Assembly: GCA_038212275.1 (NCBI GenBank)
Contig: JBBQUR010000006.1
Span: 180,262-244,261, forward strand
Direction of reading: 5' to 3'
Length of the DNA: 64,000 nt
Source of the DNA: Planctomycetota bacterium
GTDB lineage: Bacteria > Planctomycetota > B15-G4
Shown: piece after piece, positions 13,085 to 58,315 of the stretch
How positions within the stretch are numbered: position 1 is the first letter of the stretch
How the letters are laid out: every line of letters begins with the position of its first letter
Translations under genes and position numbers: made by a program
The notes under the pieces: model-generated
Database searches by the model: none
What the model saw: only the letters and a program-made list of their open reading frames with translations
Told to the model about the DNA's origin: nothing

Positions 13085-14653
13085 ATGAACTTCCGTCTTC
13101 CGCTTTCGATGGTGTTCGCCGGTCTCATGGCCGCCCCCGCTTTCTGCCAGGCCACTCCGATCGGCACCGTGCGCGTCGCGACGGCTCTCGCGCGACCCGT
13201 GTGGGTCGGCCAGGCCCCGGGCGAGACGGATCCGACCCGCCTCTTCGTGATCGAGCAGAAGCAGGCCGACATCCACATCGTGCTCAACGGCGTGGTGCAG
13301 GAGCCGCCTTTCCTCGACCTCACCAATGCGAAGGTCGTGACCAGCGGCAACGAGCAGGGACTGCTCGGCATGACCTTTCACCCCGACTTCCAGAACAACG
13401 GCCTCTTCTACATCAACTTCACGTCGGCTTCGGGCGGCGCCACGATCGTCGAGCGCTATGGCGTCATCGGCACGCCGGCCACCGCAACGGCGGCGGACGT
13501 GTCGTCCGCAACCGTGATCATCGGCCCGATCACGCAGCCGCAGACCAATCACAATGGCGGCAATCTCGCCTTCGGCCCCGACGGCAAGCTCTACATGGGC
13601 ATGGGCGACGGCGGCAATTCCAATGACACCGGCCCGGGTCACGTGACCGGCGGCAACGCGCAGTCGGGCACCACGCTGCTCGGCAAGATGCTGCGGCTGA
13701 ACGACGACGGCACGATTCCCTCCGACAACCCGTTCCTGACGCCCGGCGACGGCATCATGGACGCGATCTGGCAGTTCGGCATGCGCAACCCCTGGCGCTG
13801 GTCCTTCGACAGCGAGACCGGCGATCTCTGGATCGCCGACGTCGGCCAGGACGCGCACGAGGAGATCGACTTCGTCCCCGCGGGCCTCGGAGGACTGAAC
13901 TTCGGCTGGCGCTGCATGGAGGGCTTCACGTGCACCGGTCTTTCCGGCTGCACCTGCAACGCTCCGACGCTGATGCTCCCGATCCACGACTACGCGCACA
14001 CCGGCGGCAACTGCTCGGTGACGGGCGGCGGCCTGTATCGCGGCCAGGCCATTCCCGATCTCGCGGGCACGTATTTCTTCGCGGACTACTGCAGCAAGAA
14101 GATCTGGTCGCTGCGCTATGACGGCGCGACGGTCAGCGCCTTCACCGACCGCACGGCGGAACTCGCGCCGATCGCCGGCCAGTCGATCGATGCGATCACG
14201 TCCTTCGGCACGGACACGAAGGGCGAGCTGTACATCTGCGACCAGACCGGCGGCGACATCTTCAAGATCGTGCCGAAGAACGCCTTCACCGGACTGGGCT
14301 GCGCTCTGCCCGGCATGAACGGCAAGCCGGTGCTCTGGGCGGAAGGCAACTTCACGGCCAATGGCACGGGGACGATCCACCTGCAGAACGCGCTGGGTTC
14401 TGCCAGCTCCGTGCTCTTCGTCGGCCTCGTCGAAGGCGCCGCACCTTTCAAGGGCGGCGTGCTCAAGCCCGTGCCGGCCATCCTGACCCTGAACCTGCCG
14501 GTCGGCGCGAACGGAAAGGTCGACATCCCGTTCCTCATCGATCCGGTGGTTCCGAGCGGCACGCTCATCGCCTTCCAGTACGCGATCCAGGATCCTGGCG
14601 CGGTCAAGGGCGTGGCGCTGTCGAACGCACTCAAGGGCGTGACCACGCCGTAA
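13085..14653 (+). CDS. PQQ-dependent glucose/sorbosone dehydrogenase family secreted protein with shared C-terminal domain
   Basis: EQGLLGMTFHPDF, NHNGG.LAFGPDG.LY, GMRNPWRWSFD, DVGQD..EE motifs; GGAGAG upstream; signal peptide. Confidence 0.9.
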   Translation: MNFRLPLSMVFAGLMAAPAFCQATPIGTVRVATALARPVWVGQAPGETDPTRLFVIEQKQADIHIVLNGVVQEPPFLDLTNAKVVTSGNEQGLLGMTFHPDFQNNGLFYINFTSASGGATIVERYGVIGTPATATAADVSSATVIIGPITQPQTNHNGGNLAFGPDGKLYMGMGDGGNSNDTGPGHVTGGNAQSGTTLLGKMLRLNDDGTIPSDNPFLTPGDGIMDAIWQFGMRNPWRWSFDSETGDLWIADVGQDAHEEIDFVPAGLGGLNFGWRCMEGFTCTGLSGCTCNAPTLMLPIHDYAHTGGNCSVTGGGLYRGQAIPDLAGTYFFADYCSKKIWSLRYDGATVSAFTDRTAELAPIAGQSIDAITSFGTDTKGELYICDQTGGDIFKIVPKNAFTGLGCALPGMNGKPVLWAEGNFTANGTGTIHLQNALGSASSVLFVGLVEGAAPFKGGVLKPVPAILTLNLPVGANGKVDIPFLIDPVVPSGTLIAFQYAIQDPGAVKGVALSNALKGVTTP

Positions 14654-14715
14654 GGCCTCACACGGCGGCAGACGACTCCGCGGCCGCCACGGCTGCCTGC
14701 GGATCGACGACAAGA

Positions 14716-14745
14716 CGGGCGGCGGGTGGCGACACCCGCCGCCCG
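14716..14745 (+). terminator. GC-rich hairpin, probable terminator
   Basis: CGGGCGGCGGGTG-GCGA-CACCCGCCGCCCG, perfect 13-bp stem with GNRA loop; U-tract weak. Confidence 0.5.
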
Positions 14746-14825
14746 CGTCGTTGACTTCCCAAGCCTGCTGCCGTATCCCACACGCCGGCGAGGCCCTCGC
14801 GGCCTCGAGCTGACAAACTACACAC

Positions 14826-14970
14826 GGCACCCTCCGCGAGCGGCCTTCACGGCTCGCGGGGAGCGCATGGGGGAACCCGGTGCAACTCCGGGACTGGCCC
14901 GCAACCGTAAGCCGCGCCGCGGCAAGTCGGATTGCCCATGCCCGCCGTGGAGACCTTCGGATGCAGGGTG
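14826..14970 (+). ncRNA. Cobalamin riboswitch, short (class II-like) form
   Basis: GGGAA-CCCGG-TGCAACT-CCGGG-ACTG-GCCC-GCAACCGTAA...AAGTCGGA; GCATGGG/CCCATGC pairing; directly upstream of a BtuF/C/D-like operon. Confidence 0.85.
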
Positions 14971-14974
14971 CGAC

Positions 14975-15931
14975 ATGACATCTGCCCAAGACGCGGTGGC
15001 GCGACGGACCAGGCTGCATGCCTCGTGCTCCGCGCTCGTGGCGATGCTGCTGCTGTCGCTGCAGTTCGCAACGCCCGGCTGCGGCCGTGAGCCGGTTCAA
15101 GCCGCCGACCTGCACCTGCCGGCGGCGCCTCAACGCATCGTGCCCGCCAGCGCGGCGGCGGTGGATCTGGTGTGCGCCCTCGTCGGTCCGGAGCGCATCG
15201 CCGGGCTGCCGGCGCAAGCGCTCGACTACTCGGGCCTGCACGCACGTGGCGCCGCGGGAGAACCCTATCTGCGCCTGCCCCAGTTCCAGGCCTACGCGGC
15301 CGAACCGTTGCTCGCGCTGGACCCCGACCTCGTGCTCGCGGACAACTGGCAGCTGGCCGACACGACCGCGCGCTTGCGCGAAGCCGGCGTGCCCGTGCTC
15401 GCTCTCACGGCACTCGAATCGTATCGGGACGTGCGGTCGAGCGTCACGCTCCTGGGCGAGGCGCTCGGCGTGCCGGAGCAGGCGCGCCTCGTCGTCGCGG
15501 ATCTCGATGCGCGCGTGGATGCGCTGAAGTCCAGCGGCGGGCAGCGTGCGGGACACACCGTGCTGGCCTACAGCAATGGCGGCGCGGGCGGGTGGGTTGC
15601 AGGCGCCGGCACCGCGGCTGACGAGTGGATCCGTCTTGCCGGCCTGAAGAATGCAGCCGCCGATCGCGTGGGCCACCAGCGCTGCAGCTTCGAGGAACTT
15701 CTCACGCTGGACCCCGACCTGCTCGTGGTGAGCGGTCCGGGCAACTTCGATCGCAAGGGCGCCACCGAGCGCCTGCTGCGAGAGGAACCCGCGCTCGGCG
15801 GCCTGCGCGCGCTCGCCGGCCAACGCGTCATCGTGCTGCCCGCGTGGCTCTACGACACGGCGAGCCAGCACATCGTGTCGGCGGCCGAGGCGCTCGCGCA
15901 GGGAGCCGATCGCGCGCTGGGTGGGTCGTGA
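14975..15931 (+). CDS. btuF: Cobalamin/iron-siderophore ABC transporter substrate-binding protein
   Basis: PQRIV, E.LLALDPDLVL repeated motifs of class III binding proteins; lipoprotein-like Cys; riboswitch upstream. Confidence 0.8.
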   Translation: MTSAQDAVARRTRLHASCSALVAMLLLSLQFATPGCGREPVQAADLHLPAAPQRIVPASAAAVDLVCALVGPERIAGLPAQALDYSGLHARGAAGEPYLRLPQFQAYAAEPLLALDPDLVLADNWQLADTTARLREAGVPVLALTALESYRDVRSSVTLLGEALGVPEQARLVVADLDARVDALKSSGGQRAGHTVLAYSNGGAGGWVAGAGTAADEWIRLAGLKNAAADRVGHQRCSFEELLTLDPDLLVVSGPGNFDRKGATERLLREEPALGGLRALAGQRVIVLPAWLYDTASQHIVSAAEALAQGADRALGGS

Positions 15932-17046
15932 GCAGCGCAGGCAGCGAGGCTCCTCTCGCCGGCACCGTGCGCGCCTCGGGCGCCGGTAGCTCGCGGACTT
16001 CCTGGCTGTTCGCGGTCTGCATGCTGCTGTGCCTTCCGGCTCTTGTGCTGCTGTCGTTGCGCACGGGCAGCGCCGGCAGTCTCGGCCTGGCGGAGATCGT
16101 GCGCGGCTGCCGTGCCGCATGCGGGGGAGCCGATCCGCTCCCGGGCGCGACTCAGGTCATCGTCGAGCTTCGGCTCTGGCGCGCGCTCACGACGGCCGGC
16201 GTGGGTGCGGCGCTGGCCCTCTCCGGGGCACTGCTGCAGGGACTGTTCCGCAATGCGCTCGCCTCGCCTGCCGTCCTCGGCGTCACGGGAGGCGCGAGTC
16301 TCGGAGCGACGCTTGCCATCCTCGCGCTCGGCGGCGGCGCTCCGCTGCTGCTCGCCGTGGACGGCAGCCGTGCCGGTCTGATGGTGCCGCTGTGCGCCTT
16401 CGTCGGCGCGACGTTCGCGGTCAGTGCGGTCATGCTCCTGGCCGGAGCAGGCGGCCGCATCTCCGCACCGACGCTGCTGCTCACGGGCATCGCGCTCAAC
16501 AGCGTGATTGCCGGCGTGCTCGCGCTCCTCTCCGCGCTGTCCCTGCGCGACTGGGAGGTCTCCCGCGCGATCCTTTCCTGGACCTTCGGCACGCTGGACG
16601 ACCGCTCGCCGCAGCACGTGCTCACCATCGGCATCGGGCTGGCCGTCGCGCTTCTCGTCGTGCCTTTCGTGGCGTGGGAGCTGGACCTGCTGCAATCCGG
16701 TGAGGATGACGCGCGCTCGCTGGGCGTGCACACCTTCCGGGTGCGCCTGCTGTGCATCGCGGGCAGCTCGCTCGCCGCCGCCGCGGCCGTGGCCGTCGCG
16801 GGCCAGATCGCATTTGTCGGCCTGGTCGTGCCGCATCTCGTGCGGCTCGTCACAGGCCGCGGCCACCGCTCGCTGCTGCTGCTGTCGCCGCTGGCCGGCG
16901 CGGTCTTTCTGGTGGGGGTGGAGTGGGCCCAGAGGGCCCTGCTCGGAGACCGGGCGCTGCCGCCCGGCGTCATGATGTCGCTGGTCGGCGGGCCGTTCTT
17001 CCTCGCGCTGCTGATGTGGCAGCGCAAGGAGCTGGAGACGTGGTGA
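15928..17046 (+). CDS. btuC: FecCD/BtuC family ABC permease
   Basis: LR..R, GALLQGLFRNALASP..LGV..GA, GEDDARSLGV, G.IAFVGLVVPH, GGPFF; GTGA overlap. Confidence 0.88.
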   Translation: MSSAGSEAPLAGTVRASGAGSSRTSWLFAVCMLLCLPALVLLSLRTGSAGSLGLAEIVRGCRAACGGADPLPGATQVIVELRLWRALTTAGVGAALALSGALLQGLFRNALASPAVLGVTGGASLGATLAILALGGGAPLLLAVDGSRAGLMVPLCAFVGATFAVSAVMLLAGAGGRISAPTLLLTGIALNSVIAGVLALLSALSLRDWEVSRAILSWTFGTLDDRSPQHVLTIGIGLAVALLVVPFVAWELDLLQSGEDDARSLGVHTFRVRLLCIAGSSLAAAAAVAVAGQIAFVGLVVPHLVRLVTGRGHRSLLLLSPLAGAVFLVGVEWAQRALLGDRALPPGVMMSLVGGPFFLALLMWQRKELETW

Positions 17047-17929: not shown

Positions 17930-20473
17930 GTGGACATCCAGACTTCGCCTTGTTCCCGACCGCTCCTCCCGCAACGCGCCTGGCGCAGCCTGCTGCTGCC
18001 CGGCCTGGCGGCAGCCTTCGTCTGCGTCCCGGCGGCCGTCGTGCCGGCGCAGCTCGCCTTCGTGCCCAACCGCGGTCAATGGGAGGGGCCCGCACTCTTC
18101 CGCGCAGAGCGCGGCGAGCAGACCGCGTGGTTCCTCGCCGACGGATTCGTCCTCGCGCTCGAGCCCCGACCCGAGCACACCGATCCCACGGAACTCACCG
18201 GTCGCGGCGTGGCGTTGCGCCTGTCCTTTGCCGACACGACACGCGGCCCCGCGCCGCGGGGCGAGGGCCGTCGCCTCGAGCGCAGGAACTGGTTCACCGC
18301 GGGCCGCGCGATCACGGAAGTGCCCGCCTTCGACGCGCTGCGCTACCGCGACGTCTGGCCCGGTGTCGACATCGCGCTGCACGCCGGCGACGACGCCCTC
18401 GAGTACGACCTGTGCCTGCAACCGGGCGCCGACGTGTCGGCCATCGCGCTGCGTTGCGAGGGCGCGCTGGCGCTCGAGCTGGACGACGACGGCGCCCTGC
18501 TGCTGCACACGGAGCTCGGCCCGCTGCGCCAGCCCGCGCCGCGCACCTGGCTCGTGCATGAGGACGGCGGCCGAGAAGAGGTCGTGTGCATGTACAGGCT
18601 CCTGGGAGGCAACCGCTTCGGCTTCGAGATGCCGGGCGGCACGGCGGGGCTGGCAGCCGTCATCGACCCTGTGCTGCAGTGGGCGAGCTACCTCGGCGGC
18701 ACGAGCCTGGAATACGTGTACGCGGTGACGTGCAGCGAAGCCGGCCTCACCGTCGCCGGCGCCACGTCCGTGAGCAACTTCCCGACGACGACCGGCGCCT
18801 ACGACAAGAGCTGGAACGGGCAGCAGGACGCCTTCGTGTCGCGCCTCGCGGCCGACGGAAGCACGCTCATCTACTCCACGTTTCTCGGCGGGAGCAAGGA
18901 TGAGGAGGCGCGCGCGGTGACGATCGACGGCCAGGGCGGCATCGTGATCGCCGGATGGACGTCGTCTGCCAACTTCCCGACCTCGGCCACGGCCTTCGAC
19001 AAGAGCTGGGGCGGAGGCACCGGCACGCTGCACTCGGACGCCTTCGTGACGCGCCTGTCGCCGACCGGCACGGCGCTCGTCTTCTCGACCTATCTCGGCG
19101 GCACCAAGGAAGACTTCGCCAGCTGCGTGGGCGTCGATGGCGCCGGACGCGTGCACGTCGCGGGCAAGACGTCCTCCGCGGATTTCCCGACGACGACGGG
19201 CGCCTTCGATCGCACGCACAACGGCGGCAGCAACGACGTGGGCGACGCCTTCGTCGCGTGCCTGCAACCCGACGGCGCGGTGCTGTACTCGTCGAGCTTC
19301 CTCGGCGGCGCCGGCGACGAGTTCATCAATGCCCTCTTCGTCGGCGATGACAGCAGCACGACGGTCGCAGGCTGGACGTCATCGGCCGGCTTTCCGACGA
19401 CGCCAGGCGCCCTCGACACGGTGCTTGGCGGCACCTCGGATGCCTTCGTCGCGCGACTTCCGGCGGACGGCGCCACGCTGTCCTTCTCCAGCTTCCTCGG
19501 CGGATCGGGCGACGACAACGCGCTCGCGCTCGCTGCAGGCAGCGACGGATCCTTCTCGGTGGCGGGCACGACGCTCTCGACGGACTTTCCCGTGACCAGC
19601 GGCGCGATGCAGCAGGCCTGGCACGGCGGCACGTACTTCGGCGATGCCTTCGTCGTCACGCTGGAGGCCGGCGCGACGGCCGTGCGCTCCGCTTCCTACT
19701 TCGGCGGCGCCGGCGACGACGTGGCCACCGGCCTCGGTTTCACGCCCGACGGCACGCTCGCGCTCTGCGGCTGGACGCAGTCGGCGGACCTTCCGCTCGG
19801 CGAAGCGCCGATGGACGCCTCGCTCGGCGGCACGACCGACGCCTTCTTCGCGCGCACCGATCCCGCGGACGGCACGCTCATGTCGGCCACCTATTTCGGC
19901 GGCCCCAGCCAGGACAAGGCCTACGGTCTGGCGCTCGGTCAGGATGGTCTCGCGGCGATGGCCGGCTACACGAACTCGGCCGCGTTCCCCGTGACGAGCG
20001 GCAGCTACGACACGCACTTCGACGGCTTCGAGGGCCTCGTCGGCGACGGCTTCATCGCGCAATTCGCGCTCGAACTCGACAGCGGCTCAGCCGCCACCGC
20101 CACCTGGGTCGATGCCGGCTTCGCACTGGCCGGGCAGGCAGGCAAGATGCCCGCGCTGTCGGGGACAGGCAGCCTGGCGCCGCTGAGCCCGGGCACCGTG
20201 AATCTCGAGAACGCCGCGCCCTCGGCGCTCACGCTCGTCATCAGCAGCTCCGTCGCCGGCTACCTCCCGGTGAAGGGCGGCACGCTCGTTCCCTACCCGA
20301 TCTTCAACATCCTGGTGCTCGGCACCGACCCGATCGGTGGCCTCGTCATTCCCTACACGTGGCCCGCGCAGGTTCCGTCGGGGCAGACGCTCTACGTGCA
20401 GGCGTGGGTCCTCGATGCGGGCGCGGTGTTCGGGGCGGCGGCGAGCAATGCGATTGTGGCGACGGCGCCCTGA
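17930..20473 (+). CDS. Secreted SBBP-repeat beta-propeller protein with shared C-terminal domain
   Basis: FVPNRGQW N-terminal domain, IDPVLQWASYLGG, repeated (Y/F)ST(Y/F)LGG...G.T.S..FPTT.GA.D....DAFV units. Confidence 0.85.
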   Translation: MDIQTSPCSRPLLPQRAWRSLLLPGLAAAFVCVPAAVVPAQLAFVPNRGQWEGPALFRAERGEQTAWFLADGFVLALEPRPEHTDPTELTGRGVALRLSFADTTRGPAPRGEGRRLERRNWFTAGRAITEVPAFDALRYRDVWPGVDIALHAGDDALEYDLCLQPGADVSAIALRCEGALALELDDDGALLLHTELGPLRQPAPRTWLVHEDGGREEVVCMYRLLGGNRFGFEMPGGTAGLAAVIDPVLQWASYLGGTSLEYVYAVTCSEAGLTVAGATSVSNFPTTTGAYDKSWNGQQDAFVSRLAADGSTLIYSTFLGGSKDEEARAVTIDGQGGIVIAGWTSSANFPTSATAFDKSWGGGTGTLHSDAFVTRLSPTGTALVFSTYLGGTKEDFASCVGVDGAGRVHVAGKTSSADFPTTTGAFDRTHNGGSNDVGDAFVACLQPDGAVLYSSSFLGGAGDEFINALFVGDDSSTTVAGWTSSAGFPTTPGALDTVLGGTSDAFVARLPADGATLSFSSFLGGSGDDNALALAAGSDGSFSVAGTTLSTDFPVTSGAMQQAWHGGTYFGDAFVVTLEAGATAVRSASYFGGAGDDVATGLGFTPDGTLALCGWTQSADLPLGEAPMDASLGGTTDAFFARTDPADGTLMSATYFGGPSQDKAYGLALGQDGLAAMAGYTNSAAFPVTSGSYDTHFDGFEGLVGDGFIAQFALELDSGSAATATWVDAGFALAGQAGKMPALSGTGSLAPLSPGTVNLENAAPSALTLVISSSVAGYLPVKGGTLVPYPIFNILVLGTDPIGGLVIPYTWPAQVPSGQTLYVQAWVLDAGAVFGAAASNAIVATAP

Positions 20474-24624: not shown

Positions 24625-26073
24625 ATGTTTTCCAAGCTTTCTTCCCGCCTCATCACGCTGCTTGCTTCCCTGCGCGCGACGTTCTCGCGCCCCGGTCCGC
24701 TGACCGCACTGCCGTTCGCCCTCGCCCTGCCGTTCGGCATTGCCGCGCCATGCGGTATCGCTCTGCCGATCGGCGTCGCCCTGCTGGCGCCAGCGGCAAG
24801 TGCCTCCGACATCACCTTGCCGGCGGGCTTCAACGTCGAGACCTCGCCCGCGTCGTCCGGCAGCGTCGCGGCCGTGCTGCCCGACGGCACGCTCCTCGTC
24901 GGCACCGGCTTCTTCGGCGCCGATGAACTCTCCGTGCGCCACGCCGATGGCACCCAGACGCTGTTCGCCACGGGCTTCGGAAGCATCGCAGGCATCGCGC
25001 AGTCCCCCGTGACAGGCGACATCATCGTCGGCGACTCGTTTTTCCTGCCCGTGCTGCGCGTGCTGCACGACCTGAACCACGATGGCGACGCGCTGGATGC
25101 CGGCGAGAACGTGCCGTCTCCCGTGGCGCTGCCCGTGCTGTCCAACGGCGCCGCGCCGCTGCCCTTCGCGCTGACTTTCCGGCCGGGAACGGATGAGCTC
25201 TTCATCACGGGCTCCACGCCCTTCGGCGTCTCCCCCACGCTGGGCGTCGTCCTGCGTGTCAGCGGCGGCATCGCCACCGTCTTCGCGGATGGCCTCGGCT
25301 ATGCCTCGGGCCAGGTCTGGGCCGGCGACACGCTGTACGTGGCTGACCTGAAAGCGGTCAGCTTCGTCGGCCGCGTGCTCTCGCTCAAGGACGGCAATGC
25401 CGATGGCGATGCGCTCGATGCGGGCGAGGCCGTTGCCTTCGCAGGCAATCTCACGGGCGCGAGCGACCTGGTGCTCGCGCAGGACGGCAGCTTCTATCTC
25501 TCGGGCCTGTTCGACGACTCGGACTTCAGCGGCACGGTCGGACGCCTGCTGCCGGACCTCGACGGTGACGGCGCCTCCGATGGCGTCGACGAGCGCTTCC
25601 TCGACGGCTTCACCTTCACGGGCGGCCTCACGCTGCTCGAGAGCGGCGCGGGATTCGTGCCGGGCGCCGGCGGCGACGGCATGCTCGTCGTGCAGGACTT
25701 CGCTGCGGAGACCGTGGATCGCGTCGTGCGTTCCGCCCCGCTTGCCACGCTCGCGCTGTCCGGCTCGGCCGCGAACAACAGCGCGTTCACCATGACGGTC
25801 GGCGGTGCGCCGGGCGCCGCGGCGCTGGTGCTGCTCTCCACCGACCAGATCGGCCCGACGCTCCACGGCATCGGCGACCTGTGCGCGGGATTCAACTCGC
25901 CTTACCTGCTGCTGCCGCTGCCGCGCGTGAATGGCGCAGGCAGCACGTCCCGCACGCTGCTCTTCCACAGCGTGGAGGGCGCCGTGGGCGTGTCGTTCAC
26001 GGTTCAGGCCTTCACGCTGCAAGCCGGCGACATCGGCATCAGCAACGCCTTCGACCTCGTGCTGGCTCCATGA
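24625..26073 (+). CDS. Secreted beta-propeller-like hypothetical protein with DxDGDG loops, under cobalamin riboswitch control
   Basis: Signal peptide, repeated blade-like units (FA.G...), DLNHDGDALD/DGNADGDALD/DLDGDGASD; ends Q...SNA...P. Confidence 0.7.
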   Translation: MFSKLSSRLITLLASLRATFSRPGPLTALPFALALPFGIAAPCGIALPIGVALLAPAASASDITLPAGFNVETSPASSGSVAAVLPDGTLLVGTGFFGADELSVRHADGTQTLFATGFGSIAGIAQSPVTGDIIVGDSFFLPVLRVLHDLNHDGDALDAGENVPSPVALPVLSNGAAPLPFALTFRPGTDELFITGSTPFGVSPTLGVVLRVSGGIATVFADGLGYASGQVWAGDTLYVADLKAVSFVGRVLSLKDGNADGDALDAGEAVAFAGNLTGASDLVLAQDGSFYLSGLFDDSDFSGTVGRLLPDLDGDGASDGVDERFLDGFTFTGGLTLLESGAGFVPGAGGDGMLVVQDFAAETVDRVVRSAPLATLALSGSAANNSAFTMTVGGAPGAAALVLLSTDQIGPTLHGIGDLCAGFNSPYLLLPLPRVNGAGSTSRTLLFHSVEGAVGVSFTVQAFTLQAGDIGISNAFDLVLAP

Positions 26074-28583: not shown

Positions 28584-28621
28584 AGCGCCGCGGCACCGGC
28601 GCGCGTACAGGCAGGTGAACC

Positions 28622-29218
28622 ATGACCAGCTCCGCACCGGACGACCGAGACCGCCTGGCCGCCGTCGTGCGCGGAGACGGGGATGCCCTCGATGCCTGGT
28701 ATCGCCATGAACACCCCGTCGTGCACCGCCTGTGCACCGGCTTCCTCGCGAACACCGCGGAGGCCGACGACGCCACGCAGGACGCGCTGCTGGCGCTGCT
28801 GGACAGCCTGCCGCGTTGGGACAGCGCGCGCGACTGGCCGCGCTGGCGCAACACGATCGTGCTCAATCACTGCCGCGATCGTCTGCGGCGTCGGCAGGCG
28901 CGCAGCCGCGCCGAGGATGCCGGCGCGCGGCACGCGCCACCGGCCGCGCTGCCGGCGCCCGACGACCTCGCCGCCGCGCGCGAAGTCCGGGAGGTGCTGA
29001 TGTCCGTACTCGTCGAGCTGTCACCGCGCGAGCGCGAGGTCTTCGTGCTGCGCGACCTGCAGGGCGAAGCCGGCGCCGACGTCGCCGCCGCGATGGGCAT
29101 CGGCGAGAGCAGCGTGCGCTCATTGCTCACGCTGGCGCGGCGCCGCCTGCGTCGCCTGCTCGAAGAGCGCGCGCCGGGCCTCTGCCCGCTGCCGCTCGCC
29201 GGAGCGCGCGATGACTGA
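28622..29218 (+). CDS. ECF RNA polymerase sigma-70 factor
   Basis: Region 2 (ADDATQD...W...IVLNHCRD.LRR) and region 4 (LSPREREVFVLRD...VAAAMG...VRSLL..ARRRL). Confidence 0.92.
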   Translation: MTSSAPDDRDRLAAVVRGDGDALDAWYRHEHPVVHRLCTGFLANTAEADDATQDALLALLDSLPRWDSARDWPRWRNTIVLNHCRDRLRRRQARSRAEDAGARHAPPAALPAPDDLAAAREVREVLMSVLVELSPREREVFVLRDLQGEAGADVAAAMGIGESSVRSLLTLARRRLRRLLEERAPGLCPLPLAGARDD

Positions 29219-29846
29219 CGCACGCCGCGATGACGACGAGCTGCAGGACGACGCGCTCGCAGCGTTGCGCGCGGCGTGGGCCGAGCTTCCCGTCCCCGCA
29301 CCGACACGCGAGCTGGACGAAGAAGACGAGGCCACGCGGCGCGCCGTCGGCTGGATGGTCGCTGCCTGGCGCAGCCCCGAGGTCGTGGCGCCGGGTGTCG
29401 CGACGGCGCAGCACGCGCCGCTCGCGCTGCACGCAATGCTCGCGCTGCACGCAATGCAGGCGCGGGACGCAATGCACGCGCGGCACGCCCGGCTCGCGCG
29501 GCACCCAGACGCGGACCACGACGCTCCGCGGCTGACCGGCTGGCGCCGCCAGGTTGCCGCGGCCGCGCTCATCCTCGCGCTGCTCGGCGCCGCGCTGATG
29601 CTGCGCGACGTGCCCGGCCTCGACGCGGGCCGGCCGACGCCGGGCGAGGCCGGCCCCGTGGCGGCGGGCGATCCCCGCGCCGAGCCGGCGCCCTCGGCGC
29701 TGTCCTCGCCGGCATTCACGTCGCCGCCCGCCACGCTGCCGCTGCTGGCATCGGCGAGCCCGCCCCCCATCGAGCTGCGCGCCGGTCACACGCGCGTGCT
29801 GCTGTTCACCGAATCCACCCGCCGTACCCAGGAGATCCAACCATGA
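29211..29846 (+). CDS. Putative single-pass anti-sigma factor
   Basis: Overlaps the sigma stop; one TM helix (VAAAALILALLGAALML); Pro-rich tail. Confidence 0.6.
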   Translation: MTDARRDDDELQDDALAALRAAWAELPVPAPTRELDEEDEATRRAVGWMVAAWRSPEVVAPGVATAQHAPLALHAMLALHAMQARDAMHARHARLARHPDADHDAPRLTGWRRQVAAAALILALLGAALMLRDVPGLDAGRPTPGEAGPVAAGDPRAEPAPSALSSPAFTSPPATLPLLASASPPPIELRAGHTRVLLFTESTRRTQEIQP

Positions 29847-48429: not shown

Positions 48430-48597
48430 GCGGGACACTCCGGGGCCGGGACGCGGGGCGCAGACTAGCAGGCGCGGCGCGACGCATCGCGTGCCCGCGC
48501 CCGCGCCCGCGCGCGGCGGGGTCGGGTTAGACTCGGCGCCCGCGACCCGCGACCGTTGCGCGGCCCGCCTGCCGGACGCCCCCAAAGAGATTCGCCC

Positions 48598-49485
48598 ATG
48601 ACCTCCCCGCTCGTCCTTCGCCGCCTGTCCCGCTTCGCTCTCGTGACGGCCTGCTCCCTCGGCCTCGCCGTCAGCGTGCCCGCGCTGGAGTCGGAACTTG
48701 TCTTCGACGTCTCGCCGTTGAACCCCGACGCCGTCGGCGGCGAACTCATCGGCGTCTCCACCTCAGCCGGGCACGTGGTCCATGCGCGCCTCGACGCGAC
48801 CTTCGTGAGCGCGGACCCGGGGCCGTGGACGCTGGGCGTGAGCTTCGGCCTCCCCACCGGGATCGCGGGCGTCGACAGCCAGACGCTGGGCTGGGCGGGC
48901 GTGGGCAGCTTCAGCACGAGCCTGCAGACGGACGCCTTCAACGGCGTGCTCGGCCCGCCTCCGGGCCAGTCGCACTTCACGTGGTTCGTCGAGTGGTCCG
49001 GCGGGACGCCCTTCATGCTGCCCGGCGGCGGCTTCGGCGTGAAGCCGGTGCAGGGCGTGTTCACGCAGCTCGTGCTCACGCTCACGCTGAGCGACAGCCC
49101 TCCCGGCGCATGGACCGACCTCGGCCACGCGACGAGCGGCGCGCTCGGCGAGCCGCACCTCGCGGGCACCGGCAATCTCTGCCGGAGCGCGCCCGGCTCG
49201 CTGGTGCTCAGCTCGGCGCGGCCCGGCGGCAGCGCCTTCCTCGTGGTGGGCTTCTCCAGCCTGTGGCATCCCTTCCACGGCGGCCTGCTCATTCCGGCGC
49301 CGGATCTCGTGCTCGCACCGCTGCCCATCGACGCGGCGGGCGGCCACACGCTGCCCTTCAGCTTCCCCATCGGCGTGCCGGAAGGTCTGCAACTCTGGTT
49401 CCAGGACTGGATCCCGGATCCCGCCGGCCCGTCCGGCTACGCATCGAGCAACGCGTTGCTGGCCACCGTGCCGTCCGACTGCTGA
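48598..49485 (+). CDS. Secreted hypothetical protein with shared C-terminal domain
   Basis: Signal peptide; C-terminal WTDLG...SSNALLATVP domain similar to those of three other proteins here. Confidence 0.75.
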   Translation: MTSPLVLRRLSRFALVTACSLGLAVSVPALESELVFDVSPLNPDAVGGELIGVSTSAGHVVHARLDATFVSADPGPWTLGVSFGLPTGIAGVDSQTLGWAGVGSFSTSLQTDAFNGVLGPPPGQSHFTWFVEWSGGTPFMLPGGGFGVKPVQGVFTQLVLTLTLSDSPPGAWTDLGHATSGALGEPHLAGTGNLCRSAPGSLVLSSARPGGSAFLVVGFSSLWHPFHGGLLIPAPDLVLAPLPIDAAGGHTLPFSFPIGVPEGLQLWFQDWIPDPAGPSGYASSNALLATVPSDC

Positions 49486-49536
49486 GAGCACAGCCCGGCT
49501 GTGGACTGTCCGCCTTGCACGCGTGATCATGCCTGC

Positions 49537-52500: not shown

Positions 52501-53178
52501 GCCGGCAAGACCAAGACCATGATCATCGACATCACCGACGTGGTGGTGCGCGACGACCCGCGCCTGCGCCTCAGCACGACGCTGCAGCTGAGCTGGGACG
52601 CCATCCGCCTCGTCCTCGATGCCGACGACGCGCCGTACACGGACACGGCGCTGGAGCCCTCGGCCGCGCTGCTGCACTACCGCGGCTTCTCGTGGCCGCT
52701 CGACACGTCGGACGGCACGCTGCCCGAGATCTTCGACTGGAACGACCACGCCCAGCCGCGCTGGAACCAGCACCCCGGCCGCTACACGCGCTACGGCAGC
52801 GTGCTCCCGCTGCTGAGCGAGGCCGACGACATGTACGCGATCCTCGGCTCGGGCGACTGCATGCGGCTGGACTTCGCGGCCGCCCCGCTGCCGCCCCTGC
52901 CCGCCGGCTGGACCCGCGACTGGCTGCTCTATCTGGACGGCTGGGCCAAGGACCGCGACCCGGCCACCGCCTCGGCCGAGCGCGTCGAGCCGCTGCCCTT
53001 TCACGCGATGAGCGCCTACCCGCCGCCGGCCGGCGAGAGCTTCCCGGACGACGCGGCGCATCGCGCCTGGCAGTCGACGTGGAACACGCGCGACGGCGCC
53101 GTGCTGCTGGCGCCGCTGGACGTGCACGCCGCGCCCGATGGCCCGCGCCTCGACCTGACCCTGAAGCCGGTGCGCTGA
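49537..53178 (+). CDS. TPR + FG-GAP/VCBS repeat + ASPIC/UnbV (CRTAC1-like) lipoprotein
   Basis: LLGAC lipobox, TPRs, repeated DxDxDGxxD loops, GIG..V...GLG...I.WPNG, SCPFLYTWNG..F.F..D domain; start uncertain. Confidence 0.85.
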   Translation: MSFSGSLASCWNRRSSDAARRMCAALGSGAAALLALLLGACDGSADEPVDADLIRARTEALQVDTRYVDALKAIEPLVARTDAVEEDLVRAGILGNILGRQPEAVGFADRAMALAPKDPAVNYLRGNLHMNVQEYPQAEACFRTVLAVDPGDNATRIQLADTLVGLEREDEAEALWRQVQSAGFEANPALYRIAIYKLSRALLYAGRAEESKELSEEHARLSPVAFRAGEPAPKDPEASTLGYGRLLPPKPHVLQATASTPTWPGFSGGPDVDLHGAEHLLARDLDRDGRIDLVGWGHAGLVVALQKTAGAFNVQLVHERPVLSVAAGDMGTGDGGDAMKPEDPRHALFHPPLELLCVETPGQAAAGSGVFVLYTLNDAGRYETAGPEGLQSGDARAGIFSDVDHDGDLDVVLATGSGLQVLRNDGVERGKLLVLPSASSDAGRAAGNCRSVLAEDFDGDDDVDFLVATEHGLVLLSNDRRERFSNVTAAWNVPQDALATTPAAGCGAPVGALDLDEDGRADLVLAGLDGTLRWARNEPPAGTPAEPRAEPGAGGAHFAAPAPLRADVASLPYVFTDIDLDGHVDLVVRRAEGMTAGVGLPARLVDTVAQALAPLHGAQRAGLSSETAGETGATGSGGAGGAPGTGSSQPFVVTDLDGDLRPDLVLLGAGHARVLHDDGPVGRALPLVLDGLRDNDEGIGSIVQLRAGPLYRRLYWRGPELLGLGEHDVADVLRITWPNGVLQHGLDLPAGVPLRLEQVNRLGGSCPFLYTWNGTRFEFISDVLGTTPLGLPMSPDLFVPFDHDEYVRIRGDQLLPRDGMLQLAITEELREVTYLDRAVLHAIDHPSGVEIHPDERFAFPPFPPHHVHTFTDVVSLPRVIASNGSDVTAQLAAVDDDCARPFRRLPTQYDGLADPWWLDLTLADTPAQRAALAAAPRIRLALTGWLQWGNSSVNMSAARNPDIAFDPPLLWVPDGDGWTPTGDPIGFPAGKTKTMIIDITDVVVRDDPRLRLSTTLQLSWDAIRLVLDADDAPYTDTALEPSAALLHYRGFSWPLDTSDGTLPEIFDWNDHAQPRWNQHPGRYTRYGSVLPLLSEADDMYAILGSGDCMRLDFAAAPLPPLPAGWTRDWLLYLDGWAKDRDPATASAERVEPLPFHAMSAYPPPAGESFPDDAAHRAWQSTWNTRDGAVLLAPLDVHAAPDGPRLDLTLKPVR

Positions 53179-53184
53179 GCGTCG

Positions 53185-54621
53185 ATGCTCTTCAACAGCT
53201 TCCTCTACGTGATCTTCCTGTGGGGTGTCTACGTCCTGTTCTGGACGTGGCGCCAGCGCAAGCCGCTGCGGCACTCGATGCTGCTCGTGGCCAGCTACGT
53301 CTTCTACGGCTGGGTGCATCCGGTGTGGTGCACGCTGCTGATGTGGAGCACGCTCATCGACTACGTGTCGGCGCTGCAGATCCAGCGCGGGCACGAGGAG
53401 AACAACCCCGGCAAGCGCAAGTTCTGGATGGGCATGAGCCTCGTCACGAACATCGGCCTGCTGGCGATGTTCAAGTACTTCGACTTCTTCTCGGGCGCGG
53501 TGCAGGACTCGCTGGCGAGCGTCGGCGTGGACGCGCACACGTGGCGGCTGGACCTCTTCCTGCCCGCGGGCATCAGCTTCTACACCTTCCAGACGCTGTC
53601 CTACACGATCGACGTGTATCGCGGGCACATGAAGGCCACGCGCAGCCTGCTCGACTTCGCGGTCTTCGTCTCGTTCTTTCCGCAGCTCGTCGCGGGCCCC
53701 ATCGTCCGCGCCACGGACTTCATTCCGCAGCTGGAGAACCCGCCGACCTTCCGCATGGAGCAGATCAGCTCGGGGCTGTTCCAGATTTTGCGCGGCCTCA
53801 CCAAGAAGCTGCTGCTGGCCGACATGCTCGGCGCGCACCTGGTGGACCGGGCCTTCCTCGATGCGGACAGCATCCGGCAGCTCGGCGGCCTGGGGCTGCT
53901 CATCGCCACCTACGGCTACGCCCTGCAGCTCTACGGCGACTTCGCAGGCTACAGCGACATCGCCATCGGCAGCGCACGGCTGATGGGCTTCGAGCTGCTG
54001 AAGAACTTCGACGCGCCCTTCAAGAGCCGCAGCCTCGAAGAGTTCTGGACGCGCTGGCACATCTCGATGAGCACGTGGTTCACGGACTACGTCTACATCG
54101 GCATGGGCGGCAGCCGGCGCGGCCTGCTGCGCACCTGCTGGAACGCCTTCTTCGCGTGGACGCTCGTGGGCCTGTGGCACGGCGCGGCGTGGACCTTCGT
54201 GCTCTGGGGCATGTACCACGGCCTCTGGCTGATCATCTCGCGGCTCTTCCGCAAGCTGCTGCACGGCGGGCGTTTCCCGGACAACCCGCTGGTGGCCGTG
54301 GTCGGGACGCTGTTCACCTTCCACGTCGTGGCCTTCTCGATGATCATCTTCCGCTGCAAGGACATGGGCGTGTTCCACGCGGCGCTCTCCGCGCTGGGCG
54401 ACTGGAGCAAGGCCATGCCCGCGCTGAACTGGCAGGTGTGGACGATCATCGCGGTGGGCTACCTCACGCACTTCATGCCCGAGCGCTGGACGCTGGCGAC
54501 GGAACAAGGCTTCATCCGCTCGCCCGCCGTCGTGCAGGGGTTGCTGCTCGCGCTGGCCATCCTGCTCTTCTACGGACTGCGGCCGCCGGGCCTCACGCCG
54601 TTCGTCTACTTCCAGTTCTGA
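53185..54621 (+). CDS. MBOAT family O-acyltransferase (AlgI/PatA-like)
   Basis: MLFNS, LP.GISFYTFQ, FPQLVAGPI.R, DF.GYSD.AIG, FW.RWHISMS.W, GLWHGA.W, F.YFQF. Confidence 0.95.
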   Translation: MLFNSFLYVIFLWGVYVLFWTWRQRKPLRHSMLLVASYVFYGWVHPVWCTLLMWSTLIDYVSALQIQRGHEENNPGKRKFWMGMSLVTNIGLLAMFKYFDFFSGAVQDSLASVGVDAHTWRLDLFLPAGISFYTFQTLSYTIDVYRGHMKATRSLLDFAVFVSFFPQLVAGPIVRATDFIPQLENPPTFRMEQISSGLFQILRGLTKKLLLADMLGAHLVDRAFLDADSIRQLGGLGLLIATYGYALQLYGDFAGYSDIAIGSARLMGFELLKNFDAPFKSRSLEEFWTRWHISMSTWFTDYVYIGMGGSRRGLLRTCWNAFFAWTLVGLWHGAAWTFVLWGMYHGLWLIISRLFRKLLHGGRFPDNPLVAVVGTLFTFHVVAFSMIIFRCKDMGVFHAALSALGDWSKAMPALNWQVWTIIAVGYLTHFMPERWTLATEQGFIRSPAVVQGLLLALAILLFYGLRPPGLTPFVYFQF

Positions 54622-54628
54622 GGGCGCC

Positions 54629-55879
54629 ATGACAATCATCGGCATGCGCACGGTCACCGTCGTCGTCGCGCTGGCGGCGCTCGAGTTCTCGCTGCGCACC
54701 TTCGGCGGACTCGGCCAGTGGTCGGCCAGCGAGCAGAACGAGCGCTACGGCTGGCGCATGCTGCCCAGCCAGAACGCGCTCTCCCGCGAGCTCACGGTGA
54801 CCGAGCACATCAACGCCGCGGGCTTCCGCGATCGCGAGTGGGACCCGCCGCGTCGCGACCCCGCGGCGCCGGTCCTGCCCGCGGCGACGGTGCAGCCCGC
54901 GGCGACGAACCAGCCCGCAGTGCCGGACCAGCCCGCAGCTCCGCCGACGCGCGGGCCGTGGCTCAAGGATGAGAGCGTCTTCCGCGTCGCGCTCGTGGGC
55001 AACTCCATGACCTTCGGCACCAGCGTCGCCATCGAGGACACCTGGGGCCGGCAGCTCGAGGACGCGCTGGCGAAAGACTTCGCGGAACGCGGCGTCCAGC
55101 GCACGCCGATCGTGATGAACTTCGCCGTGCAGGGCTACGTCTTCGAGCAGATGGCCCGCGTCTACGAGGACCAGATCCGCCCCTACCGCCCGGACCTGCT
55201 CATCGTGCCGATGCACCCGCACGACATCACGCCGATGAAGCCGGCACTCGACGACCCCGACTACGAGTTTCGCTCGCTCATCCTGCGCAGCGCGACCTAC
55301 GACTGGCTCAACCGCAACGTCATCAACCGCTGGATGCCGCCGCCGCCGCCGAGCGCCGAGGCGCTGGCCGGGCAGCGCGCCGCGGAGGCCGCCGACGCCT
55401 CCATCACCTACAGCCCGTTTTCCAAGGACAACCAGCACTACTGGACCGAGATGACCGCGCGCCTCGACGCGGTGCGCCAGATGGTCGAGGTCGACGGCGG
55501 GCACCTCGTGATCGTCTCGCTGCCGCGCTGGCGCTCGATTTTCGAGCCCAAGCTGCTGGGCGCGGACACCAAGTGGGCACCCTACGCCAGGCTGCATCCC
55601 GGCACGCTGCACGTCGACCCGATGCCGGACTTCCGGGCCCCGATGCTGGCGCTCATGCAGGAGATCCTGGCCAAGAAACTGTCCGCCAGCCAGACCTACG
55701 ACTTCTCGAAGCTGAAGTGGAAGGACGACCAGGGCGTCGAGCATTCCGGCCTGGAGCTCGACCACGCGGACGAGTCGCTCTTCCTGCTCTACGACAATGG
55801 CCACTACAGCGTGGCCGGCCACGCGCTGCTGGGTCAGGTCATCTTCCGCGAGCTGGCGCGCGGCGGCATGCTCCCCTGA
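54629..55879 (+). CDS. SGNH/GDSL hydrolase-like periplasmic protein (acyltransferase partner candidate)
   Basis: IN..GFRD, GNSMTFG, NFAVQGY, DNGHYS..GH motifs; follows the MBOAT gene. Confidence 0.8.
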   Translation: MTIIGMRTVTVVVALAALEFSLRTFGGLGQWSASEQNERYGWRMLPSQNALSRELTVTEHINAAGFRDREWDPPRRDPAAPVLPAATVQPAATNQPAVPDQPAAPPTRGPWLKDESVFRVALVGNSMTFGTSVAIEDTWGRQLEDALAKDFAERGVQRTPIVMNFAVQGYVFEQMARVYEDQIRPYRPDLLIVPMHPHDITPMKPALDDPDYEFRSLILRSATYDWLNRNVINRWMPPPPPSAEALAGQRAAEAADASITYSPFSKDNQHYWTEMTARLDAVRQMVEVDGGHLVIVSLPRWRSIFEPKLLGADTKWAPYARLHPGTLHVDPMPDFRAPMLALMQEILAKKLSASQTYDFSKLKWKDDQGVEHSGLELDHADESLFLLYDNGHYSVAGHALLGQVIFRELARGGMLP

Positions 55880-55960
55880 AGGCGACGCGCCGCCGGAGGT
55901 CTCCCTCCGACGGCGCGCGAACAGCCGATGAATGGGCGGCGAGCGGCTCGCCGCGGCCGG

Positions 55961-56458
55961 TCAGTTGTCGGTCTGGTACTGGGCGTTGACCTCGGCTTCC
56001 TTGAGCGCCTCGGCCTGGGCTTCGTTCTTGACGTCCGTGTCCTGGTCGGAGCCGAGGACGGTGAAGAGGTCGATCGGCCCCGTCACGATGAGCCAGAGCG
56101 TGTCGAAGATGAGCGACGGCACCGAGGCCAGCCACTTGTAGCCGTCCCCGATGTCGCTGCGCGCGATGACGCGACTGCCGGCGTAGGAGAGGTATTTGTG
56201 GTTCGGGTTGTAGAGCGGGCGGCTGCCCCACTGGTCGGACGCGGCCGTGAACGGGGCCACGATGCCGTCGCCGATGGCGACGAACGGCGTGCCGATGATC
56301 TTGGGCACGTAGTTGATGTCGGAGTGCACCCACTTCTCCGTGGCGCCGAAGCTGCGATGGTCGTTGTACAGGCAGCCGGTGCAGAGGAGCAGAGCCCCCA
56401 GGACCGCCAGGCAGGCAAGCGAGCGGAACAGGGAAGCAGGCGAGTCTTGCGTGCGCAT
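55961..56458 (-). CDS. Hypothetical lipoprotein
   Basis: LLCTGC lipobox-like signal; coding-like composition. Confidence 0.65.
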   Translation of the reverse strand: MRTQDSPASLFRSLACLAVLGALLLCTGCLYNDHRSFGATEKWVHSDINYVPKIIGTPFVAIGDGIVAPFTAASDQWGSRPLYNPNHKYLSYAGSRVIARSDIGDGYKWLASVPSLIFDTLWLIVTGPIDLFTVLGSDQDTDVKNEAQAEALKEAEVNAQYQTDN

Positions 56459-56680
56459 CCTCGTGGTCGTCCTCATCGGGGGAAGTCGGGGGCAGTCGCT
56501 GGCGGGCAGGTCGGCCCGGTCGCACGCGTATCGGGCGGGCGATCCCGGCGAGCATATCGGGCGCGGCTGGCGGGACACAAGCCACCTTGCCCCACCTGCA
56601 GGGCGCCTGCGAGTCCCGTCAGACGAGCCGGGATACCCGTCGAGGTCCGGAAAGTGACGGCCCGCAGCGGCTGCCTGCTC

Positions 56681-57229
56681 TCACTGCTGGCGTGCGAACA
56701 GCGGATAGCTTGCTTCGCGCTGGTGAATCGCGCCCTCGGACGCGAGCACGCTGCTGTACAGCTCGATCCCCGTGACGGGGAAGGGCTCGCTGGTCAATTC
56801 CACGTGATCCCGCAGCAGCGCGTGCAGCCTCGGCAGCGGCGGGTCGTGCAGCCGCGCGAGGGTGATGTGCGGGGCGAACTTGCGCTCCTCGGGTGGCAGC
56901 CCGATGCGGCGCACGACGCGCTCCACCTGCCGGTGCAGCTCGGTCACTTCGTCGCAGGGTTCGACCCCGGCCCACAGGACGCGTGGTACGCCGCGCGGCG
57001 GGAAGACGCCCACGCCGCACAGCGACAACTCGAAGGGGTCGGCGCGCACGCCGTGCAGCGCCTCGCTGATGGCGCGTGCGACCGGCCCCTCGACCTGGCC
57101 GAAGAAATGCAGCGTGAGGTGGAACTGCCGGTCACGCACCCAGCGCGCTCCGGGCAGCCCGTTGCAGAGCGCCGCAAGCTCGGCCTTCTGCTCGTCCGGC
57201 AGGTCGACGGCGACGAACAGGCGGGGCAT
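56681..57229 (-). CDS. thpR: RNA 2',3'-cyclic phosphodiesterase (2H family)
   Basis: RLFVA, HLTLHF.G, PRVLWAG, F.PHITLAR; TATGAT 6 nt upstream of the ATG. Confidence 0.93.
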   Translation of the reverse strand: MPRLFVAVDLPDEQKAELAALCNGLPGARWVRDRQFHLTLHFFGQVEGPVARAISEALHGVRADPFELSLCGVGVFPPRGVPRVLWAGVEPCDEVTELHRQVERVVRRIGLPPEERKFAPHITLARLHDPPLPRLHALLRDHVELTSEPFPVTGIELYSSVLASEGAIHQREASYPLFARQQ

Positions 57230-57337
57230 GCGCCGATCATAGCGCTGGTTTCGCCCGTTCAAGAGCGCGCTGCGGCGGAAGTCCCGCGCTGTCGCCGCGA
57301 GCCGGAGTGCCGCGGCACCCGGCCCGCCGCGCAAGCC

Positions 57338-58315
57338 TCACGGCACGTCGCCACGCACGGCGTTGCTGAGCGAGACCCCGCACACGGCCGCGGCGTCCTT
57401 CACCCCGAACTGGAAGTGCACCGCCAGGCCGGAGAGACCCGCAGGCCAGGCGGCCCAGCCCAGCGGGAGGCCGCCGCCCGGACTCGTGGCGAGGACGAAG
57501 CTCGTCAGCACGGGCACCGGCACGAGCGTGCCGCACTTGAAGGGCGTCGGGTTTCCGGCCAGTGCGATGACCAGCAGCGCCGGAGCGGAGGGAGCTGCCT
57601 GGCTCAGCACGAGCGTGCCGGACGACCCGGCGACGAGCGTCCCCGTCCCGACGAGCAGCGGCGCGCCGGCCACGCCGGGCAGCGCGAAGCCGAGGTTCGT
57701 CCACGCCGGGTTCACCGCTTCCACGACGACATTGTCGATCACGTTGCCGTAGCCCGACGGCGAACCGCTGAGCGGCGTGAGGCTCTTGAACTTCAGCGTC
57801 GTCGAGGCCGCGGTCGCGGTGAACGTAAAGCTCTTGTGCTGGTAGGTGAGCACCAGCGGCGGGACGAACGGGATGACCGACCCGATGTTGAAGGCGAACA
57901 CCTGCGTCGTGCCAGCAGCGCTGACCTCGACCTCCTTCACGAGCGGCAGTCCGTTGGGATTGGCGCTCATGTCGAAGGTCACGACGTACTGCTTGCCCGC
58001 CGTCGTCGCGAAGGACTGGGCGATCGAGCCGTTGCGCGGCTGCACGTTGACGCTGCCATCGAGGTCCACGCTGCGCACGCCGTCCGAGGCATTCCACGTG
58101 GCGGAACTCACGTAGTCGATGTGGAAGTCCCCCACGGTCCAGCCCGTGATGGCGGTCGAGCCGCCGGGAAGGTCGATGAAAAGCCCCGGCGAAGTGCCGG
58201 CTTCGAAGCTGCCGTTGATGAGCAGGTTCTGGGCGGCCAGAGGGGTCGGCGCCGCCGTGGACAGGAGCAGGGCAGCGGCGGCGGCCGCAAGCAGGCGGGC
58301 GATCGAGCGATGCAT
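57338..58315 (-). CDS. Choice-of-anchor C / DUF642-like secreted protein with shared C-terminal domain
   Basis: Signal peptide, NLLINGSFE, ITGWTV...IDY...W.ASDG..SVDLDG, I.QSFAT..G..Y.V.FD...NP, IDNV.V. Confidence 0.82.
   Translation of the reverse strand: MHRSIARLLAAAAAALLLSTAAPTPLAAQNLLINGSFEAGTSPGLFIDLPGGSTAITGWTVGDFHIDYVSSATWNASDGVRSVDLDGSVNVQPRNGSIAQSFATTAGKQYVVTFDMSANPNGLPLVKEVEVSAAGTTQVFAFNIGSVIPFVPPLVLTYQHKSFTFTATAASTTLKFKSLTPLSGSPSGYGNVIDNVVVEAVNPAWTNLGFALPGVAGAPLLVGTGTLVAGSSGTLVLSQAAPSAPALLVIALAGNPTPFKCGTLVPVPVLTSFVLATSPGGGLPLGWAAWPAGLSGLAVHFQFGVKDAAAVCGVSLSNAVRGDVP

Follow-up and report, generated by a model that had tools for sequence, protein, structure and literature searches.

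A single-copy C-terminal beta-sandwich domain on about 140 exported proteins of a Planctomycetota bacterium: a candidate envelope-tethering module

Interchangeable C-terminal tags on diverse secreted cargo are found in several bacterial systems, among them PEP-CTERM/exosortase and LPXTG/sortase. Small attachment modules of other kinds include the dockerins, which are Ca-binding helical repeats, and the S-layer homology (SLH) domains, which are helical. The cargo of the type IX secretion system (T9SS) of the Bacteroidota carries a C-terminal domain (CTD; type A, TIGR04183/PF18962; type B, TIGR04131), described as a seven-strand 3+4 sandwich (PMC11285876), and a Q-rule for signal peptides has been described as Bacteroidetes-specific (PMC5837995). 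In Akkermansia muciniphila, a predicted C-terminal Ig-like domain of the sulfatase Amuc0953 was likened to the T9SS CTD and linked to cell-surface retention, and the authors suggest that a comparable system may exist in Akkermansia (PMC13524802); this is the nearest published idea to the domain described here. Protein placement in the unusual envelope of the Planctomycetota is largely unexplained. Here we describe a domain of about 120 aa, hereafter named the tail, that marks some 140 exported proteins in the genome of one Planctomycetota bacterium. It was noticed in a stretch of 64,000 nucleotides (the window; contig JBBQUR010000006.1, here C6, positions 180262-244261) of the 4.65-Mb assembly GCA_038212275.1 (70% G+C, 40 contigs, rated 91% complete). 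Positions given without a prefix are those of the window.

Four genes of the window code for proteins that end in the same module (Table 1), as the first-pass annotation of this DNA had claimed. Their N-terminal parts are unrelated (GSDH; DUF7948 plus SBBP; no family; DUF642/choice-of-anchor C), and a signal-peptide-like N-terminus is present in all four, located near 13028-13085 in the GSDH gene. Translation and alignment defined the four tails as C-terminal segments of 121-124 aa in which 25 columns are invariant and any two sequences are ~38% identical, and the envelopes of the hidden Markov model (HMM) lay 0-3 nt from the starts given in the first-pass annotation. A profile made from these four tails only was searched against the 38,109 six-frame open frames (>=60 aa) of the genome in three rounds. 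In the first pass (domain E<=1e-5) 113 other open reading frames (ORFs) were matched, which indicates that the likeness among the four tails is far beyond chance. After three rounds 134 frames were matched, or 141 at the threshold of the final set (E<=1e-3), never with more than one copy per frame, and the guess that many more copies would be present genome-wide was therefore correct.

The position of the domain is nearly always C-terminal, also as anticipated: 133 of the 141 copies lie five residues or fewer from the stop codon, three lie at 6-20 residues and five at more than 60. Matches were neither few nor often internal or on cytoplasmic proteins, and the domain corresponded to no characterised binding or Ig module. 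Intact non-terminal copies were located right behind the signal peptide in four cases and internally in one, and these exceptions are real genes, with coding-type G+C at third codon positions (GC3) throughout. In C7_48390 the order is signal peptide, tail and metallo-beta-lactamase fold. Two adjacent giants on contig C4 (1297 and 1670 aa; L022:6062-9952 and L022:11838-16847) carry a divergent tail between the signal peptide and a Malectin/TIG/GSDH-like/Kelch propeller part. The tail of C28_566 is internal, between a TSP_C-like domain behind the signal peptide and 170 further residues, and a weak N-terminal copy is present in C9_162669. In addition, a polytopic PMT_2/GT-C membrane protein (L032:6815-9139, C20) has a soluble C-terminal part followed by a ~45-residue (Gly-Ala)n linker and the tail. 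Since copies occur behind signal peptides, internally and on this polytopic protein, a free C-terminus is not required for the tail. Two short frames, C2:25658-26113 (151 aa) and C28:20004-20543 (179 aa), consist of little beyond a tail and show no convincing signal peptide; these are perhaps remnants, or tails that stand alone. The public representatives likewise include short entries made up of a tail only, which may be contig-end fragments.

The family signature, G..PFKGG..P..G..P.G..Q....D..G..SNA, stands on an all-beta domain of ~120 aa with which exported proteins end. All 135 aligned tails share Gly77 and Gln98, and Pro87, Gly21, Gly57, Asp103, Asn114 and Ser/Thr113 come close to invariance. 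The family alignments contain no conserved stretch of 7-10 columns. The tail ends in ...SNAL..TP with no terminal hydrophobic helix, so that it lacks the transmembrane-plus-basic ending of PEP-CTERM, as had been noted. When 67 tails were compared with Pfam and NCBIfam, no model was matched at E<=0.01 (CBM, Big, PKD, PPC, FlgD_ig, dockerin and SLH included), and a sequence search of the PDB with the family profile gave an unrelated protein as best match (E 0.053). In the ESM Atlas, the closest clusters are named 'hypothetical protein', come most often from Planctomycetota and have no Pfam family, and no description of the domain was found by full-text searches of the literature. This domain is undescribed in Pfam and NCBIfam and restricted to certain clades.

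Structure prediction, which had been proposed together with the database comparison, was performed with AlphaFold2 on the 67-row alignment and gave a very confident all-beta model of 121 aa with 11 DSSP strand elements (pLDDT 97.6, pTM 0.89). Foldseek retrieved nothing from the PDB at E<=1e-3. An exhaustive VIA search placed an Ig domain of LILRB4 first (Z 8.4, 87 residues aligned, rmsd 2.6) and an MG domain of alpha-2-macroglobulin second (Z 8.3), the Z 7-8 range being typical of models without a true match. The predicted fold is that of a generic Ig/macroglobulin-like beta-sandwich. Ester-bond adhesin domains were among the weak Foldseek matches (TM-score 0.37-0.42); an intramolecular ester or isopeptide domain was rejected, since Lys56 varies among the copies and neither a His nor a Thr partner is conserved.

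The passengers of the tail are diverse. BLAST grouped the 131 passenger regions into 65 clusters of up to 30 members. A Pfam scan covered 62 of the 141 carriers, namely those in the first 20 fetched regions, and assigned a family to 35 of them and none to 27. FG-GAP/VCBS was the most frequent (17), followed by sulfatases, LTD with endonuclease/exonuclease/phosphatase, DUF642, DUF7948/SBBP and TSP_C-like (two each); phytase-like, CHRD, NHL, PD40 and BNR/sortilin passengers and one MtrC/MtrF-like multihaem cytochrome were also found. The cytochrome, which includes Big_9 (L019:6560-8887, C25), ends in the tail and has a signal peptide without lipobox cysteine; here the tail may stand in for the lipid anchor of Shewanella-type MtrC. 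In their sources the tail proteins are named 'hypothetical' or after the passenger. One of them, P0214, bears the NCBI name 'PEP-CTERM sorting domain-containing protein', yet ends in a tail and lacks PEP-CTERM.

Export was judged from signal peptides by our own heuristic rules. A loose rule was passed by 127 of the 141 tail frames and was unspecific, since it also flagged 1364 non-tail genes. Under the stricter rule that took its place, heuristic as well, 73 of 118 genes with a tail and 682 of 2056 without one were positive (odds ratio 3.3). Many of these signal peptides end in ...A-x-A|Q and expose an N-terminal Gln, as seen in tail genes and in the Porin_O_P protein encoded at 11485-12849. 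The pair [AGS]Q was present in the c-region of 55 of the 73 tail proteins and of 176 of the 682 other genes with a heuristic signal peptide, and the stricter small-x-small|Q pattern in 39/73 and 103/690, respectively. Because the set of other genes is diluted by false positives, the exposed-Gln rule may be genome-wide. A search for a glutaminyl cyclase of the plant type (PF05096) had no match.

The tail might instead be an ordinary accessory module of Ig-like fold (a ligand or polymer binder, a spacer or a stabilising cap) that was spread by gene duplication in these lineages and has no targeting role. The generic predicted fold and the many paralogous cargo proteins, such as the cluster of 30 and the 17 FG-GAP proteins, are what such a module would lead one to expect. 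The same is true of its inheritance: in 70 pairs of homologues with the same architecture, identity was 50% in the passenger and 53% in the tail, which was the more conserved part in 41 of the 70, in a set picked by tail similarity and thus biased towards the tail. These similar values indicate, as far as sequence identities go, that a tail is inherited together with its passenger and that the copies of one genome have not been homogenised. Ig and carbohydrate-binding accessories, however, are commonly internal, in tandem and tied to particular enzyme classes, whereas the tail is single-copy, 95% terminal and spread over all 65 passenger clusters, including a cytochrome, nucleases, sulfatases and a membrane glycosyltransferase, and it accompanies a choice-of-anchor domain. 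Passengers so diverse make a substrate-binding module unlikely, and we regard the accessory role as a whole as distinctly unlikely. It is very unlikely that the tails bind each other and so build a mixed surface lattice or coat. The domain is poor in charge (K+R 3.0%, D+E 4.1%) and reaches a very high copy number per genome, which would fit a lattice; paralogous tails are just ~38% identical, and the lack of homogenisation speaks against it as well.

Outside this genome, the profile was compared with 1.84 billion representatives and matched 12,699 proteins or clusters at E<=1e-3, 6,165 at E<=1e-10 and 820 at E<=1e-30. In the best 150 of these the domain lies seven residues or fewer from the C-terminus without exception. 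A survey of 401 Planctomycetota genomes detected the tail in 82, among them 42 of the 42 sampled from the window's own class, and families were positive or negative as a whole (f1 10/10, f2 8/8, f3 4/4, f7 12/12 and f14 8/8; f6 0/20, f15 0/23, f24 0/11 and f27 0/16). The domain is lineage-specific, as had been supposed. Most genomes of the window's own class gave at least 107 matches, family f104 just 5-9, and five low-copy genomes a single match each; named relatives had from 62 to at least 150. A query with a single tail returned five related loci, all from metagenome-assembled genomes of Planctomycetota/Phycisphaeraceae save one spurious Verrucomicrobia match, and the genome behind this match contains no tail. 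One tail protein, P0223, carries the label Pseudohongiellaceae (Gammaproteobacteria) and so points to either mis-binning or gene transfer.

Sharp presence and absence along family lines, together with cargo numbers of this size, are also compatible with a C-terminal signal that would serve a dedicated outer-membrane export and attachment system in secretion or sorting. Such a signal would be a functional analogue of the T9SS CTD, read in the periplasm and then cleaved off or transferred at the surface. The terminal position in one copy per protein is in line with this, as are the kinds of cargo, which are typical of T9SS or PEP-CTERM systems, the enrichment of exposed-Gln signal peptides, which recalls the Bacteroidetes Q-rule, and the CTD proposed for the Akkermansia surface sulfatase, another protein of the Planctomycetes-Verrucomicrobia-Chlamydiae (PVC) superphylum. 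On the other side, the N-terminal and internal copies and the copy on an inner-membrane protein are placed where a C-terminal signal could not act, and among the tails of the genome set neither a low-complexity linker nor a conserved cleavage motif was detected upstream of the domain. We consider this alternative unlikely. Its more far-reaching form, in which the tail is the cargo signal of an unrecognised Planctomycetota export or surface-display system that has its own outer-membrane machinery, serves 3-4% of the genes and arose in the PVC superphylum independently of the T9SS CTD but on the same principle, is unlikely as well.

Such a system would require machinery, and none emerged. SprA (TIGR04189), PorP/SprF (PF11751) and the C25 peptidase (PF01364) were not found in this 91%-complete genome, and the Por_Secre_tail model TIGR04183 had no match in it; no control genome was matched in these searches either, so that this absence is weaker evidence. 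Neither exosortase (PF09721) nor sortase (PF04203) was found, in searches that did match control genomes (one and three, respectively). The first-pass annotation had proposed a sorting or attachment domain and a co-occurring outer-membrane translocon or protease. The former is consistent with the terminal, single-copy position on diverse exported passengers; the latter was sought in the gene neighbourhood and by presence and absence in 30 tail-positive and 30 tail-negative genomes, sorted by the outcome of the 401-genome survey, and did not appear.

Several candidates were considered in these comparisons. Exosortase was present in 15 of the 30 tail-positive and 9 of the 30 tail-negative genomes, and its presence is independent of the tail. 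Secretin-domain matches numbered eight in this genome (contigs C4, C6, C9, C10 and C12) and 2-13 in all 60 genomes tested, with means of 6.9 (tail-positive) and 5.0 (tail-negative); they do not discriminate and were rejected as tail machinery. Among 357 non-tail neighbours, only the extracytoplasmic function (ECF) sigma factor and Ser/Thr-kinase-TPR families were mildly enriched (9 of 32 family members, p 0.025). ECF sigma factors paired with Ser/Thr-kinase-TPR proteins of ~1000 aa recur beside tail genes (e.g. L007:7853-11729) and were set aside as regulators. Homologues of the membrane part of the GT-C protein were found in 9 of the 30 tail-positive and none of the 30 tail-negative genomes, a split that may reflect kinship. 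Only one of these matches was strong (1e-52), no tail fusion was present at any of six fetched loci of other genomes, and the neighbours of the gene (Rieske oxygenase, SPFH and CMD) are unrelated, so that the GT-C/PMT_2-tail protein was rejected as core machinery.

The explanation we prefer, at a probability of roughly 0.45, is that the tail is a retained, modular envelope-tethering handle on the ~140 exported proteins, acting by a mechanism not described before. The carriers would be exported by Sec through their N-terminal signal peptides, and the tail would fold autonomously into its beta-sandwich of ~120 residues. We infer that it would then bind one common, abundant envelope component, the candidates for this target and site being an outer-membrane protein, a glycolipid, the wall or a scaffold, and that more than 100 enzymes, propellers, nucleases and a multihaem cytochrome would thereby be kept at one place. 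A single terminal copy on more than 100 unrelated exported proteins and the sharp boundaries between clades suggest a handle for targeting or attachment and not an accessory of particular enzymes. A tether rather than a cleaved signal is favoured by the N-terminal, internal and inner-membrane copies and by the searches in which no cleavage motif, transmembrane helix or sorting enzyme was found. Anchors also appear to be swapped: the tail occurs on a choice-of-anchor C domain and on a protein that NCBI named after PEP-CTERM.

Five observations weigh against a tether. No binding partner emerged, and the enrichment of neighbours yielded the ECF-sigma/Ser-Thr-kinase pairs only. In the 70 pairs, conservation was no stronger in the tail than in the passenger. 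The GT-C fusion, not seen at six of six homologous loci, may be an isolated case. With 95% of copies C-terminal, the bias exceeds that of SLH domains and would suit a C-terminal signal too. Finally, the location is ambiguous, since the GT-C copy would face the periplasm and a cytochrome of the MtrC type should lie outside the outer membrane.

The first-pass annotation also pointed to shorter, more diverged tails on two further proteins of the window, the S8 protease and the product of 24625-26073 (Table 1), neither of which was matched by the genome-wide profile search. Their C-termini were ranked among control C-termini, namely the final 160 residues encoded by each of 2056 genes without a tail. 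The tail of the 24625 protein (last 150 residues with 13 homologues) was aligned by hhalign to the family profile with the invariant Gln and the SNA motif in register, the reversed control giving E 0.066, and it ranked 8 of 2056 (19.2 bits, p 7e-8). The S8 protease tail ranked 16 of 2056 (p 7e-5), and its hhalign E of 0.065, from an alignment to which only two homologues could be added, is at the level of the reversed control. The claim of a diverged tail is therefore supported for the 24625 protein, as a probable distant member, and only weakly for the protease. In this calibration 18 sequences were found at p<=1e-4 against 0.2 expected, a surplus suggesting that about 15 further distant members are probably present in the genome, the 24625 tail among them; the S8 protease tail may be another.

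Table 1. Features of the window that carry or form the tail domain, with the evidence for each
Feature	Position	Strand	Evidence
Secreted glucose/sorbosone-dehydrogenase-family gene ending in tail	12872..14653	+	PF07995 GSDH E 2.5e-41; longest ORF
Tail domain copy 1	14285..14644	+	Family HMM E 8.7e-34; envelope = residues 505-624 of 626-aa open frame
Secreted DUF7948 + SBBP beta-propeller gene ending in tail	17930..20473	+	PF25778 E 6.3e-39, PF06739 E 2.8e-8; signal-peptide-like start
Tail domain copy 2	20105..20467	+	Family HMM E 3.1e-33; envelope 749-869 of 870
Secreted-protein gene ending in tail, N-terminal part without Pfam/NCBIfam family	48556..49485	+	Signal-peptide-like start ~48598
Tail domain copy 3	49111..49470	+	Family HMM E 4.8e-39; envelope 215-334 of 338
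Secreted choice-of-anchor C / DUF642 gene ending in tail	57338..58357	-	TIGR04362 E 8.1e-40 (136.6 bits, cut-off 120); PF04862 E 1.5e-18
Tail domain copy 4, used for structure model	57344..57703	-	Family HMM E 3e-35; AlphaFold2 pLDDT 97.6, all-beta
Probable distant superfamily member, C-terminus of 24625-26073 protein	25750..26064	+	hhalign probability 67%, E 5e-5, 99 columns
Possible, unproven distant member, C-terminus of S8 protease (gene 5776-7683)	5788..6096	-	PF00082 S8 E 5.1e-45; tail HMM 9.5 bits

Three neighbourhoods of the window were also recorded. The GSDH-tail gene is flanked by the Porin_O_P gene mentioned above, which codes for a phosphate-porin-like outer-membrane barrel, and by a Peripla_BP_2 plus FecCD ABC-import pair (region 11485-17046). 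Directly 3' of tail gene 3, positions 49486-55879 code for a 1225-aa FG-GAP/TPR protein, an MBOAT O-acyltransferase (53179-54618) and a 483-aa ORF without assigned function, and may represent a polymer-acylation cluster. An ECF sigma gene (28619-29215) is followed by the gene of a 539-aa protein (29276-30895) with a weak Secretin_N match.

The proteins marked by the tail include polymer-degradation enzymes and a cytochrome of the extracellular-electron-transfer type. A family model would annotate thousands of 'hypothetical' proteins, in more than 12,000 clusters of the public data, and would predict their localisation. If dedicated machinery exists, the tail would belong to a new sorting system; if it is a tether, it would represent a new dockerin-like principle in diderm bacteria.

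Compared with the systems described so far, the tail shares with PEP-CTERM/exosortase and LPXTG/sortase the interchangeable C-terminal tagging of secreted cargo, and with PEP-CTERM the very passenger families, since choice-of-anchor C and PEP-CTERM-named proteins bear either tag. It differs from both in being a soluble folded domain instead of a motif with a transmembrane helix and a basic cluster; its consensus contains neither the LPXTG motif nor the transmembrane tail, and the enzymes of both systems were not found in the genome. With the T9SS CTD the tail has in common that it is a folded beta-sandwich, present in one copy at the extreme C-terminus of unrelated Sec-exported cargo, with tens to hundreds of cargo proteins per genome and signal peptides that often expose Gln. 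However, none of the 67 tails matched TIGR04183, PF18962, TIGR04131 or PF13585 at E<=1, which confirms the impression by eye that the tail is unlike the CTD motif. The tail model has 11 DSSP strand elements in ~120 aa, against the seven strands in ~70-100 aa of the CTD, HBP35 (5y1a) stood only at Foldseek rank 15 (E 2.2e-2, TM-score 0.41), some tails lie at the N-terminus or within the chain, the tail belongs to another phylum, and the T9SS components SprA, PorP and C25 were not found, in the searches without positive control described above. The Amuc0953 CTD is likewise a C-terminal Ig-like domain on a surface enzyme from the PVC superphylum, a likeness of description only; the tail profile matched no related PDB chain, and the one Verrucomicrobia genome tested gave no match. 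Unlike dockerins and SLH domains, the tail is all-beta, with no relation to them in sequence or fold and with no cohesin-like or polymer partner known here. As a working analogy only, it resembles them in being a small retained module, mostly terminal and usable at either end, by which many enzymes would be held non-covalently on one surface partner.

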